From sequence record OQ791282: 47,865 nucleotides of DNA. One strand, given 5' to 3'. Under the pieces are notes generated by a model. It searched no databases, was not told the origin of the DNA, and saw nothing but the letters and a program-made list of their open reading frames with translations. Position 1 is the first letter of the stretch. Each line of letters opens with the position of its first letter. Shown here in pieces: positions 8,153 through 8,732 of this stretch. Source of the stretch: Shigella phage Henu10. Made by a program: the position numbers and the translations under genes.

Positions 8153-8183
8153 TTTGCACAGTAAAAAAATAGTCGTATATTTG
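8153..8183 (+). promoter_or_regulatory. Bacteroidota sigma-A-type promoter (-33 TTTG, 19-nt spacer, -7 TATATTTG)
   Basis: TTTG at 8153..8156 and TATATTTG at 8176..8183; same arrangement on the minus strand at 24000..24030 for the paralogous cassette. Confidence 0.6.
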
Positions 8184-8187
8184 CAGT

Positions 8188-8352
8188 GTTCAAAACCCGT
8201 GAGGATTTTTATATTCTCAATTTAAATAAAGATATTAACTCATTGGCGTGAGGGTGTCGTGTAGTAGTAATACTATACAAATTCGTGAAACACGGGTTTT
8301 GAACAGCACCTACTCACGCTTTTTTTATTTTTTATTATTATGTTCAAAACCC
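8188..8352 (+). promoter_or_regulatory. Structured 5' leader (cis-regulatory RNA switch candidate) of the antirepressor cassette
   Basis: Arm1 GTTCAAAACCCGTG (8188..8201) pairs with arm2 CACGGGTTTTGAAC (8291..8304); arm2 can instead pair with GTTCAAAACCC spanning the start codon (8342..8352); GCGTGAG (8246..8252) / CTCACGC (8313..8319) plus T-run forms a terminator-like hairpin; all arms co-vary in the paralogous leader. Confidence 0.6.
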
Positions 8353-8732
8353 AAACAACCGCACCAACCGCAAACAACAGTAGCGAGGTGCAAAGACAAA
8401 TCGTAAGAAGTGTAGCTATCGGCATTATCAAAGATGCTATCTTATTTGAAAGAATACACGACGGTTTATTTATGGTAATTAACGCTTTTAAAAGCAATGG
8501 GCATTCCAAAAATTTAGCCGCTGCTCAACAATATAGCGGCATAGGTAACGCCATAAACTTAATTTGTGATGGAGAATGTCCTTGTGATGACTTATATAGT
8601 AAGCTAACATCTGTATTTTTAAATATACATCAGCAAGAAAAAAGCGACAATCTTTTGTATATATCCGAAAGGGTTTATAATGAATGGTCTGAGGTTATAA
8701 GAGATTTTTACATTAACAGAAAATCTGCCTAA
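8340..8732 (+). CDS. Hypothetical protein (first gene of antirepressor cassette)
   Basis: 130 aa; N-terminus MFKTQTTAPTANNSSEVQ paralogous to the 23527..23847 product. Confidence 0.5.
   Translation: MFKTQTTAPTANNSSEVQRQIVRSVAIGIIKDAILFERIHDGLFMVINAFKSNGHSKNLAAAQQYSGIGNAINLICDGECPCDDLYSKLTSVFLNIHQQEKSDNLLYISERVYNEWSEVIRDFYINRKSA

Follow-up and report, generated by a model that had tools for sequence, protein, structure and literature searches.

Each of the two antirepressor cassettes in the window, by which we mean the whole stretch of 47,865 nucleotides that was analysed, is preceded by a structured RNA leader organized around one antisense segment, A′. This segment is complementary to two copies of a short address, one (A) at the 5′ end of the transcript and one (A″) at the start codon of the first gene, ORF1. 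Comparison of related leaders supports the conclusion that A′ can pair alternatively with the segment at the 5′ end or with that at the start codon, selection acting on both pairings. We lean towards reading the leader as an address-specific antisense/anti-antisense element that would govern the translation start of ORF1 and of the coupled antirepressor gene, ant, as an analogue of P4 CI and of P1 c4-icd-ant.

The window is Riemerella phage vB_RanS_PT15. The triplication of the address is real and far beyond chance: the 11-mers GTTCAAAACCC (one copy) and GTTAAACCATC (the other copy) each occur three times in the 47.9-kb window, with none elsewhere, against 0.01-0.02 occurrences expected per address 11-mer, and three occurrences were reached in 0 of 100 shuffles. 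A lies at the predicted +1, A′ is inverted about 100 nt downstream, and A″, inside the translation initiation region, runs from the G of the ATG (Table 1). The initial annotation had placed copy 1 and the minus-strand copy 2 correctly, and a check of the sequence bears out what it said of their pairing: the 14-nt A of copy 1 is the perfect reverse complement of the A′ core, A′ is also complementary to the segment spanning the ORF1 ATG, and in copy 2 all three sites are changed with both pairings kept. The complementarity of A′ in copy 1 amounts to 14 bp with A, starting at the first predicted transcribed nucleotide, and to 12 bp with A″, including the UG of the AUG; A8305 adds a pair with U8341. 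The two leaders can be aligned from the promoter through ORF1 codon 18-19, with the differences clustered in the three address sites.

Table 1. Positions of the leader elements and cassette genes of the two copies in the window.
Copy	Feature	Positions	Strand	Basis
1	Promoter: −33 TTTG and −7 box TATATTTG	8153-8156, 8176-8183	+	sequence
1	Predicted +1 (G8188)	8188	+	TSS inferred from promoter position
1	A, 5′-terminal address copy GTTCAAAACCCGTG (as RNA GUUCAAAACCCGUG)	8188-8201	+	sequence, covariation
1	P2 hairpin, GAGGA...UUCUC	8201-8218	+	folds
1	T 5′ arm: lower GCGUGAG (8246-8252), invariant upper GGUGU (8253-8257)	8246-8257	+	covariation, RNAalifold
1	P3: 8-bp hairpin, GUAA (GNRA) tetraloop	8259-8278	+	covariation
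1	A′, antisense hub CACGGGUUUUGAACA	8291-8305 (14-nt core 8291-8304)	+	sequence, covariation
1	T 3′ arm: GCACC, CUCACGC	8306-8310, 8313-8319	+	sequence, covariation
1	ORF1 start codon (8340-8342) and A″ UGUUCAAAACCC (8341/8342-8352)	8340-8352	+	sequence, covariation
1	ORF1, 130 aa, predicted small helical protein	8340-8732	+	ORF call
1	Antirepressor, AntA and KilAC domains	8735-9454	+	domain match
2	Promoter and leader	23848-24030	−	sequence, alignment to copy 1, covariance-model match
2	Promoter: −33 TTTG, −7 box	24030-24027, 24007-24000	−	sequence
2	Predicted +1 (G23995)	23995	−	TSS inferred
2	A	23995-23982	−	sequence
2	T 5′ arm	23941-23929	−	
2	P3	23927-23908	−	
2	A′	23896-23882 (14-nt core 23896-23883)	−	
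2	T 3′ arm	23881-23877, 23874-23867	−	
2	ORF1 start codon (23847-23845) and A″ UGUUAAACCAUC (23846-23835)	23835-23847	−	
2	Cassette: ORF1, 106 aa, phrog_29185 (23847-23527); antirepressor, 249 aa (23524-22775)	22775-23847	−	

The −33/−7 promoter first noted upstream of the leader is of the Bacteroidota type in both copies: each has a −33 TTTG and a −7 TAnnTTTG at the spacing proper to sigma-A (ABfr), the consensus being taken from work on Flavobacterium, in which the −7 element is numbered T−12...G−5 (PMC6847099). In all 39 leaders aligned, TTTGCA..G is without variation, the −7 box is kept in all aligned members, and the invariant G, 5 nt past the G of the −7 box, is both the expected +1 and the first nucleotide of A. 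An upstream small ORF or a leaderless start at GTG 8186 (MFKTRED...) was considered and rejected, as the peptides differ between the copies and the GTG position reads CCG, GCG or TCG in most family members.

The hub A′ sits in the loop of a conserved Y-shaped scaffold made of the lower T stem, the upper T helix GGUGU/GCACC and P3. RNAalifold independently gives T and P3 and leaves the 3′ part of A′ unpaired. The conserved core consists of the invariant GGUGU/GCACC helix, the GNRA hairpin and junction bases. At the position of P2 a hairpin of differing sequence is seen in all subgroups, by inspection of the alignment and with no formal count, and an A/U-rich linker follows, to 8245. On geometric grounds, either A:A′ or A′:A″ could stack on the GGUGU/GCACC helix as a pseudoknot. 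A K-turn at the internal loop between the lower and upper T helices was rejected, since the sequence there reads without tandem G-A pairs.

The stem GCGTGAG/CTCACGC with its T7 run, interleaved with A/A′, is present as first described. It was also said to make for mutually exclusive structures, and this is only partly so: A:A′ and A′:A″ do compete for A′, but T and A:A′ need not exclude each other. Nor does the second stem of copy 2 contain the G-U pair ascribed to it; the stem is GGCGTAAG/CTTACGCC, compensated from G-C to A-U. The G-U appears only if CGTGAG, at the 3′ end of A, pairs with CTTACG, an alternative that is unconserved in the family. An extra pairing between CGUGAG at the 3′ end of A and CUCACG in the T 3′ arm was set aside, being restricted to the Riemerella c1/c2-like subgroup and absent from Capnocytophaga-type members.

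After the T 3′ arm a U7 run and then a U/A-rich spacer lead to the start codon (arm and spacer together, 8306-8339). Of 52 members, 42 have at least 6 U among the 9 nt that follow the T stem, and a spacer of 18 nt to the ATG is the most frequent. A lower T stem of 7-10 bp with a U-tract directly after it has the make-up of an intrinsic terminator, with predicted activity; a simple terminator scanner makes no call at T because the “loop” is about 60 nt. The stem and U-tract are compatible with the production of a short RNA, though A would stay attached to such an RNA.

How widely is the leader found? Members were gathered by covariance model from Riemerella phages, a Capnocytophaga genome, IMG/VR and metagenomes; a gapped pattern scan of IMG/VR returned mostly noise, and only loci confirmed by the covariance model were used. 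The 80 matches, each with E <= 9e-10, have one architecture throughout, and copy 2 is matched at 23862-23946 with 79.7 bits. The family holds 36 address alleles and 41 distinct triples, and A/A′/A″ are complete in about 58 of 61 unique members. One exception, L171, has a 17-19 bp A:A′ helix and no A″; three others (L029, L034 and L037) have mismatched sites and are possibly chimeric assemblies. Short contigs checked for possible transcript origin proved to be genome contigs only. The copy 2 cassette is also present in R. anatipestifer ATCC 11845.

The element lies outside Rfam C4 and every other Rfam 15 family. Scanning the whole window with cmscan at gathering thresholds gave 0 matches, the segment 8100-8450 at E <= 10 gave a chance match to Arrc14 alone (E = 8.4), and the C4 family covariance model (RF01695) was unmatched even at E <= 10. 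The Rfam result agrees with the initial annotation, which had recognised no known riboswitch class. In the Riemerella phage and sRNA literature consulted the element goes unmentioned. The leader accounts for spurious “hypothetical protein” calls that run across it in deposited phage genomes.

It seems clear that the leader is conserved as a structured RNA with both A′ pairings kept, as was first proposed, for the homologues carry compensatory changes and all three address sites covary. In the family alignment 96% of cells are paired in A:A′, and both sides have changed at 6 of 8 pairs; for A′:A″ the values are 98% and 6 of 9, with up to four pair types per position. The T stem has changed on both sides at 6 of 10 pairs in the MAFFT alignment and at 8 of 8 in a larger set fitted to the covariance model, and P3 at 4 of 8 pairs, or at 7 of 8 when the larger set is used, with 99-100% of its cells paired. 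The observed values were reached in 0 of 500 shuffles, and slid controls were 24-47% paired. When the first 10 nt of A are compared with the Watson-Crick partner of A′, there are 9 wobble-compatible transitions and 0 incompatible ones, plus bulges, and of the 15 triples with a deviating A, 12 have an A″ that matches the complement of A′ exactly and none has an A″ identical to A. Since A deviates by G-U pairs and bulges only, and A″ tracks A′, it is the sense-strand RNA that pairs, and A′ is the hub.

The addresses themselves diversify rapidly. Among near-identical Capnocytophaga-type leaders the address differs by 0.31-0.41 per site versus 0.08 elsewhere, an evolution 4-5 times faster than that of the rest of the leader. 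Cognate A′:A″ pairs average −16.8 kcal/mol versus −6.3 for non-cognate pairs, and 1.7% of non-cognate pairs fall in the cognate range. In the two-copy genomes and contigs the alleles differ in 7 of 7 cases, which is weak evidence because random draws from 36 alleles mostly differ too. A diversity-generating retroelement was considered and rejected, as the variable positions take all four bases and there is no RT gene. By analogy, a hypervariable and orthogonal address marks a determinant of RNA-RNA specificity like those of P4 CI and P1 c4.

What control might such a leader exert? In the Bacteroidota, which do without SD sequences, initiation is tuned by the structure of the initiation region (PMC6847099). 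We envisage that a leader RNA of about 150 nt is transcribed from the consensus Bacteroidota promoter, and that its A′ can pair with either copy of the 10-14-nt address, the one at the transcript 5′ end or the one extending from the UG of the start through codons 2-4. With A:A′ formed, the 5′ end would be buried and the SD-less initiation region open. If A were displaced, removed or out-titrated, or if an A′-bearing leader RNA acted in trans, A′ would mask the start codon. Masking would silence ORF1 and also ant, which in both window cassettes starts 2 nt past the ORF1 stop (TAA CT ATG in copy 1). Some transcripts probably end at T and its U-tract, which would leave a structured short RNA, about 135-140 nt long. 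Control would be allele-specific, with each cassette, copy and related phage answering its own RNA only.

Folding energies bear on the default state. A:A′ is stronger than A′:A″ in 41 of 41 alleles (means −23.1 versus −16.7 kcal/mol); wobbles and bulges are confined to A:A′, and in several alleles the energies are closer, for example −22.0 versus −19.5 kcal/mol. Because A:A′ is always the stronger, the start codon should be open by default in cis, and sequestration needs an extra event. The start-codon sequestration proposed in the initial annotation must be qualified in the same sense: the A′:A″ pairing covaries, but the default cis state is open. Moreover, since A′ should stay on A in cis, the antisense reading must postulate a free A′ species, and none is evident from the sequence.

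Might the leader work in cis alone? On this account, which we think rather unlikely, A′ would toggle between the 5′ end and the start codon on a non-RNA cue, and the address diversity would be a by-product. The cue might be 5′-end decay or processing (a “timer” that silences ageing mRNA), a scaffold-binding protein (ORF1 or a host factor), temperature or a helicase. A bistable translational switch of this sort fits the presence of all three elements in one transcript, the covariation of both pairings, and the narrowing of the energy gap in several alleles by wobbles and bulges that occur only in A:A′. The invariant upper T helix and junction nucleotides could be a protein site, and the sequence shows no evident free A′ species. 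One would be left, however, with no reason for the addresses to evolve so much faster than their surroundings through coordinated triple changes, and none for the mutual orthogonality of the alleles, and the near-identity of ORF1 across alleles makes a co-varying protein partner unlikely.

It is improbable that the A:A′ helix serves only to bury the 5′ end or stabilise the RNA, with the likeness of A″ incidental, for example a duplication scar. A:A′ is indeed the strongest helix and begins exactly at the predicted +1, and L171 has its long A:A′ helix with no A″. Such a role does not explain why, in the deviating triples, A″ follows A′ and never A, why A′:A″ covaries with so many pair types, or why, in every member with an A″, this copy begins at the UG of the ORF1 start codon.

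A metabolite riboswitch is probably not what the leader is. A ligand-binding version, in which the upper T helix, P3 and junction form the aptamer and A/A′/A″ the expression platform, would have in its favor a highly conserved core beside variable pairing segments, alternative pairings that touch the initiation region, and the lack of an Rfam match, whereby it would be a new class. We judge it very unlikely all the same. The core is small: besides an invariant 5-bp helix and a plain GNRA hairpin it has short junctions, none of them elaborate or pocket-like. The leaders stand before accessory or antirepressor cassettes of phages and not before metabolic or transport genes, hypervariable orthogonal addresses are not a riboswitch trait, nothing points to a ligand, and the open state is the more stable in every allele. 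The original RNA-switch reading thus stands as regards a structured leader with alternative pairings, while ligand sensing is unsupported.

Least probable is a DNA-level element (protein operators, recombinase inversion or deletion sites, or address-guided protein targets): there are indeed about 90 bp between the inverted copies A and A′ and about 150 bp between the direct copies A and A″, the predicted transcription start lies in A, and a scaffold with a variable segment looks superficially guide-RNA-like, but the 80 homologues all have the same orientation with the intervening segment never missing, sense-strand G-U-compatible transitions and bulges are meaningless for DNA sites, T and P3 covary as RNA, G-U pairs included, the cassettes have no linked gene for a recombinase, RT or nuclease, and ORF1 does not co-vary with the address. 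An invertible or excisable DNA switch and operator repeats were rejected on the same grounds, the single arrangement among homologues and the strand-specific wobble deviations.

What is under the control of the leader? In both window cassettes ORF1 is followed by an Ant with AntA and KilAC domains, and an Ant homologue lies 3′ of ORF1 in L011; in many family members the downstream genes are not antirepressors. The initial description of two antirepressor cassettes is therefore true of this phage, but the family cargo is not always an antirepressor, and given that cargo, “immunity” in the P1 sense may not generalise. The address dictates codons 2-4 of ORF1, which has a conserved N-terminal motif, TTAPTANNSSEVQ; leaders with different address alleles precede nearly identical ORF1 genes. 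The first 54 nt of ORF1 were considered as part of the RNA element and rejected: (V/A)NNS(S/N) is kept via synonymous C/T changes across subgroups, so that the start of ORF1 is conserved at the protein level, and no convincing pairing of these 54 nt with the leader was found. An AlphaFold model of ORF1 is a four-helix protein with a mean pLDDT of 63, too poor for a fold search. ORF1 has no Pfam match, and its match in PHROGs is to phrog_29185 alone, where function is unassigned.

The antisense reading invites a bolder extension, which we hold tentatively: the leaders could be a natural address code written in RNA, by which temperate phages of the Flavobacteriales tell self from non-self. The constitutive leader RNA of a prophage would silence in trans any cassette with the same 10-12-nt address, including the antirepressor of a superinfecting relative, while the 5′-terminal A would protect or tune the prophage's own mRNA. 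Diversifying selection would then account for the dozens of orthogonal alleles and for each phage having two independent channels. If the address-code reading is true, it would be the first description of RNA-based immunity in phages of the Bacteroidota, and the alleles would be a ready-made orthogonal riboregulator library for SD-less translation. If trans action and immunity hold, P1/P4-type RNA immunity would reach a distant phylum via an unrelated fold, a case of convergent evolution, and one could predict which Riemerella or Capnocytophaga phages induce or exclude one another, which is relevant to phage therapy of R. anatipestifer. Post-transcriptional control is poorly known in Bacteroidota, above all in their phages; to our knowledge these bacteria lack Hfq. 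The leader family illustrates how RNA pairing can compactly gate a start codon that has no SD, and it supplies about 36 orthogonal address variants already validated in nature; the design may be usable for orthogonal gene control in Bacteroides and Flavobacterium engineering.

How does the leader compare with known systems? The traits of the c4/CI functional class are found here: a segment complementary to one upstream and one downstream site in nearly all members, a downstream target over the start of a small ORF before ant in both window cassettes, and relatives with compensating antisense and target changes, cognate pairing far exceeding non-cognate. The P4 CI RNA pairs with seqA upstream and seqC downstream of itself (PMC4825925). 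As in P4 (seqA/seqB/seqC), the antisense segment lies in an untranslated leader behind a constitutive promoter and is complementary to upstream and downstream direct-repeat sites of the same transcript. The downstream site in P4 likewise reaches into the translation start region of a small ORF, and compensating changes distinguish related elements. There is, however, no sequence or structure homology, the hosts are Proteobacteria for P4 and Bacteroidota here, and the upstream site here is the exact predicted 5′ end and forms the stronger of the two helices. In P4 a processed RNA brings about premature termination of transcription; processing and trans action would be the corresponding steps here.

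In phage P1, C4 RNA and Icd regulate Ant (PMC8201110). As in c4-icd-ant of P1 and P7, the leader encodes an antisense RNA transcribed together with its target; this target takes in the translation start of a small ORF (there icd), with expression of ant coupled to that ORF, and the product is an antirepressor. The details of c4-icd-ant control were reportedly worked out by Citron and Schuster in 1990 and by Biere et al. in 1992; between P1 and P7, covarying bases set heteroimmunity. RNase P processes c4 to an RNA of 77 nt that has two loop segments (a′, b′), whereas the present leaders have a single 12-15-nt hub in a different fold; P1 and P7 provide 2 alleles against 36 here, Icd is unrelated to ORF1, and family members here are often without ant.

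In Gifsy-1 IsrK-orf45-anrP a terminated small RNA and a read-through mRNA come from one promoter (PMC4825925). The same pair of transcripts with shared complementary segments is predicted here, and small-ORF translation would likewise be coupled to the antirepressor; the IsrK read-through mRNA is inactive by default and activated by the small RNA, whereas the default cis state here is predicted open, and IsrK is without a hypervariable address. The sar/ant system of temperate phage P22 also controls antirepressor translation initiation by antisense RNA, but sar is an opposite-strand transcript, and in the present leaders one strand and one transcript contain both the antisense segment and its target. 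In hok/sok-type mRNAs (fbi/tac) and in cis-repressed or toehold riboregulators one again finds an initiation region, a masking segment and a competitor for the masker, with the transcript 5′ end taking part and many orthogonal variants possible; their folds and contexts are other than those here, and the natural ones are not hypervariable within a family, while the synthetic ones are engineered. From these analogies we infer that the logic of the leader is that of P4 CI and of P1/P7 heteroimmunity, in an unrelated RNA fold and in phages of the Flavobacteriales.

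The two leaders of the window, copy 1 on the plus strand (8153-8352) and copy 2 on the minus strand (24030-23835), lie exactly where the initial annotation placed them. Each carries a short, hypervariable address of 10-14 nt three times: A on the 5' side, its complement A', and A'', which overlies the start codon of the first gene, ORF1. In the window GTTCAAAACCC is found at 8188 (plus), 8294 (minus) and 8342 (plus), and GTTAAACCATC at 23995 (minus), 23883 (plus) and 23845 (minus): three occurrences each, against 0.01-0.02 expected by chance for an address 11-mer; three were reached in no shuffle. 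The leaders are indeed paralogous, being alignable from about 60 nt upstream of the predicted +1 through codon 18-19 of ORF1, with the differences concentrated in the three sites. The stem GCGTGAG/CTCACGC and its T7 run are present in copy 1; the G-U pair claimed for copy 2 is an error, as the stem there is GGCGTAAG/CTTACGCC, a compensated change. MFE folding of the leaders gives z = -3.6 and -4.2. Past codon 18-19, nucleotide identity of the paralogous modules stops abruptly (~8396 and ~23791), and among Riemerella phages addresses, ORF1 types and genome positions are variously combined, CRP19 having a copy-1-type ORF1 at the copy-2 position; together these observations point to a mosaic exchange boundary inside ORF1.

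How widespread is the element? By blastn against phages, the leader was found at 34 places in 19 Riemerella phage records and in no other phages; a pattern built on the conserved hairpin matched 39 metagenome contigs, 4 contigs of IMG/VR and the genome of one Capnocytophaga sp. These matches were confirmed by a covariance model limited to the core, from the 5' arm to the 3' arm of the terminator-like stem T; the model also turned up 29 more divergent IMG/VR loci, for a family of 80 hits, 57 of them distinct, every one with E <= 9e-10. The order of parts is identical in every member: a -7 box, TAnnTTTG; CA and two variable bases, then A from an invariant G; hairpin P2 and an A/U-rich linker; the 5' arm of T-lower, one unpaired base and GGUGU; P3, a CG-closed hairpin with a GUAA tetraloop; a spacer, A', A-GCACC and C/U-A-C; the 3' arm of T-lower; a U/A-rich stretch, as a rule of 14-21 nt (mode 18); and AUG followed by A''. 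An Rfam scan gave no match for the leader, which belongs neither to C4 nor to any other Rfam family, in keeping with the initial view that no known riboswitch class was recognisable. Nor is it described in the Riemerella phage literature that was searched.

Some loci are individual. At L171 (~6000-6240, minus strand) the A:A' helix is 17-19 bp long, but ATGAAAACAG, where ORF1 starts, is not complementary to A'. L029, L034 and L037 mix sites from different alleles, which may stem from chimeric assembly or from natural recombination. L115 (IMG/VR 2517434010_000001, 3966-4396, minus strand) has tandem leaders 340 nt apart with different addresses; all that follows the upstream one is an ORF remnant of 36 codons and a terminator hairpin, and this leader could have been retained as a stand-alone RNA gene.

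Homologues do carry compensatory substitutions, in A:A', A':A'', T-lower and P3. Among 39 distinct leaders aligned with MAFFT, 96% of A:A' cells are paired, with both sides changed in 6 of 8 pairs and at most four pair types per position; for A':A'' the values are 98% and 6 of 9 pairs, and both sides have changed in 6 of 10 pairs of T-lower and 4 of 8 of P3. The observed covariation values were reached in none of 500 shuffles, and pairing falls to 24-47% once the partner is shifted by 1-3 columns. A larger, model-fitted alignment, which leans towards the model, has covarying pairs at 8/8 positions of T-lower and 7/8 of P3, the 5-bp GGUGU/GCACC helix (T-upper) being invariant save for U-G to U-A. 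RNAalifold, given no structure, recovers T-lower and T-upper as well as P3, adds a small C-GNRA-G hairpin, and keeps the 3'-terminal 11-14 nt of A' single-stranded.

Does the address act as RNA or as DNA? The family has 36 different addresses, and its (A, A', A'') triples come in 41 different forms. Departures of the first 10 nt of A from the Watson-Crick partner of A' are C to U (7) or A to G (2), both G-U-compatible on the sense strand, and no incompatible transition is found there among the 41 triples; several alleles have a single bulged U or A. In 12 of the 15 triples where A departs, A'' remains exactly complementary to A'; in none does it follow A. G-U-only departures, with A'' tracking A', make A' the hub: on these sequence patterns, A and A'' are both selected to pair with A' as sense-strand RNA, and the fit of A'' to A' cannot be put down to A and A'' being mutual copies. 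Operator, inversion and excision models are excluded for practical purposes by the departure pattern, by A'' tracking A' and by a DNA arrangement that is the same in all homologues.

The A:A' duplex is stronger than A':A'' in all 41 alleles (means -23.1 versus -16.7 kcal/mol), and nested conformers lie close together in energy, with means of -41.6 for A:A' and -37.1 for T with open A'. Because A' directly adjoins GCACC, either A, a free 5' end, or A'', on a ~18-nt U-rich linker, can pair while T is formed, and A:A' or A':A'' can stack coaxially on T-upper as a pseudoknot, by geometric reasoning rather than a computed pseudoknot fold. The true competitors for A' are A and A''; on the same geometric grounds, the mutual exclusion proposed initially does not necessarily hold for the interleaved T and address helices. 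A U-tract lies behind T in 42 of 52 members, so T is plausible as an intrinsic terminator, at which an RNA of ~135-140 nt, without A'', would end. The Flavobacterium -7 element spans T-12...G-5 (PMC6847099), and on that consensus we infer that the invariant G, 5 nt past the -7 box, is the +1 (G8188; G23995), so that A would be the exact RNA 5' end and the A:A' helix blunt at its 5' terminus. The base before this G is unconstrained, as expected for an untranscribed base.

In pairwise comparison, 22 near-identical Capnocytophaga-type leaders differ by 0.41, 0.31 and 0.33 per site in the variable stretches of A, A' and A'' versus 0.08 in the rest of the leader, and from codon 5 on ORF1 is nearly unchanged across these alleles. 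Coordinated triple change at 4-5 times background argues for diversifying selection on the address, or its exchange within a maintained allele pool, and against drift. Mean A':A'' energy is -16.8 kcal/mol for cognate versus -6.3 for non-cognate pairs, only 1.7% of the latter falling inside the cognate range. Wherever one genome or contig holds two leaders, seven cases in all (PT15, RAP44, CRP5, L115, L147, L088/L089, L047/L048), the two addresses differ, which is suggestive only, since random draws from 36 alleles would mostly differ too. Single addresses recur on clearly different leader backbones and in different genera, for example GTTAAGACAAG, GTTCAAACAAG and GTTCAAATCAG (L009/L142/L134; L021/L049; L011/L079), which may be due to convergence, the A-rich sequence space being limited, or to addresses having been exchanged horizontally.

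Genes of the two cassettes of the window and their upstream neighbours
Feature	Position	Strand	Remarks
DUF3800 protein gene	7183-8016	+	directly upstream of copy 1 cassette; hairpin terminator between gene and leader promoter
Copy 1 ORF1	8340-8732	+	130 aa, without Pfam family
Copy 1 antirepressor (ant)	8735-9454	+	AntA and KilAC domains
Bro-N/'DinD'-like protein gene	24120-24944	-	directly upstream of copy 2 cassette; hairpin terminator between gene and leader promoter
Copy 2 ORF1	23847-23527	-	106 aa
Copy 2 Ant	23524-22775	-	

Over positions 1-44128 the window sequence is exactly that of the temperate Riemerella siphovirus vB_RanS_PT15, whose host R. anatipestifer belongs to the Flavobacteriales. 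The last 3.7 kb (44129-47865) are absent from the PT15 record ON933637, with no circular wrap, and complete a 1452-aa minus-strand ORF (43114-47472) for which the record has only cut 'similar to hypothetical protein' features. Both cassettes are self-contained units, copy 1 being preceded by a hairpin at 8051-8069 and copy 2 by a hairpin and T-run 3' of the Bro-N/dinD-like gene. Many R. anatipestifer strains with a sequenced genome (L172-L180, e.g. CP002346 and CP002562), the ATCC 11845 lineage included, carry the copy-2 cassette as a prophage, from the Bro-N gene through leader, ORF1, Ant and WYL_2 to NinG. A minus-strand 'hypothetical protein' ORF overlaps the leader in deposited Riemerella phage genomes (window 8273-8509; CRP5 8684-8938; CRP19 28066-28320), and is probably a spurious call on structured RNA.

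Control of antirepressor cassettes, as first proposed, suits the window, where Ant lies behind both leaders, as it does in Riemerella phages and L011, but cargo varies across the family: Capnocytophaga-type contigs have small unknown proteins there, and in the L010 group the leader lies upstream of a tape-measure gene. ORF1 is loosely conserved and, from modelling, probably a four-helix protein with a disordered N-terminus. Past variable codons 2-4 it has a motif, ...ET(T/N)(A/P)..(V/A)NNS(S/N)(E/P)... (window 8352-8396; L012, L011, L115), that is kept, with synonymous changes at third codon positions, in several subgroups, those of Riemerella and the Capnocytophaga type among them. In L002 (GRAP2, minus strand ~22140-21577) and L051 (PJA1), the leader and ~28 ORF1 codons are fused in frame to the SH3-like/WYL_2 protein normally downstream of ant; the remaining ORF1 and ant are deleted, and the A/A'/A'' triple is intact.

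How might the leader work? As far as sequence can establish it, one hub has two competing partners, the RNA 5' end and the start codon with codons 2-4, on a covarying, terminator-like scaffold, and the address is orthogonal and fast-evolving. Bacteroidota initiate translation without SD pairing, and structure at the start codon reduces initiation (PMC6847099). With A:A' formed, the 5' end would be protected and ORF1 translatable, and ant would follow through the TAA-CT-ATG junction. If A were unavailable, or A'-bearing RNA of the same allele in excess, A' would instead cover the start codon. Through the address, this control would reach cognate partners only, as it does in P4 and P1/P7.

Functionally, P4 CI and P1/P7 c4 are the nearest systems. 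In P4 the pairing partners of CI RNA are seqA, on its upstream side, and seqC, on its downstream side (PMC4825925), Ant of P1/P7 is under control of c4 RNA and Icd (PMC8201110), and IsrK-orf45-anrP of Gifsy-1 is a precedent for a leader that is both small RNA and mRNA 5' end (PMC4825925). Like P4 CI and P1/P7 c4, the leader would be a co-transcribed antisense/anti-antisense leader, but it falls outside the Rfam family C4 that holds those RNAs, belongs to another phylum and has a fold of its own. Its unusual features are the exact 5'-terminal pairing, the gating of an SD-less start codon and the large natural set of orthogonal alleles.
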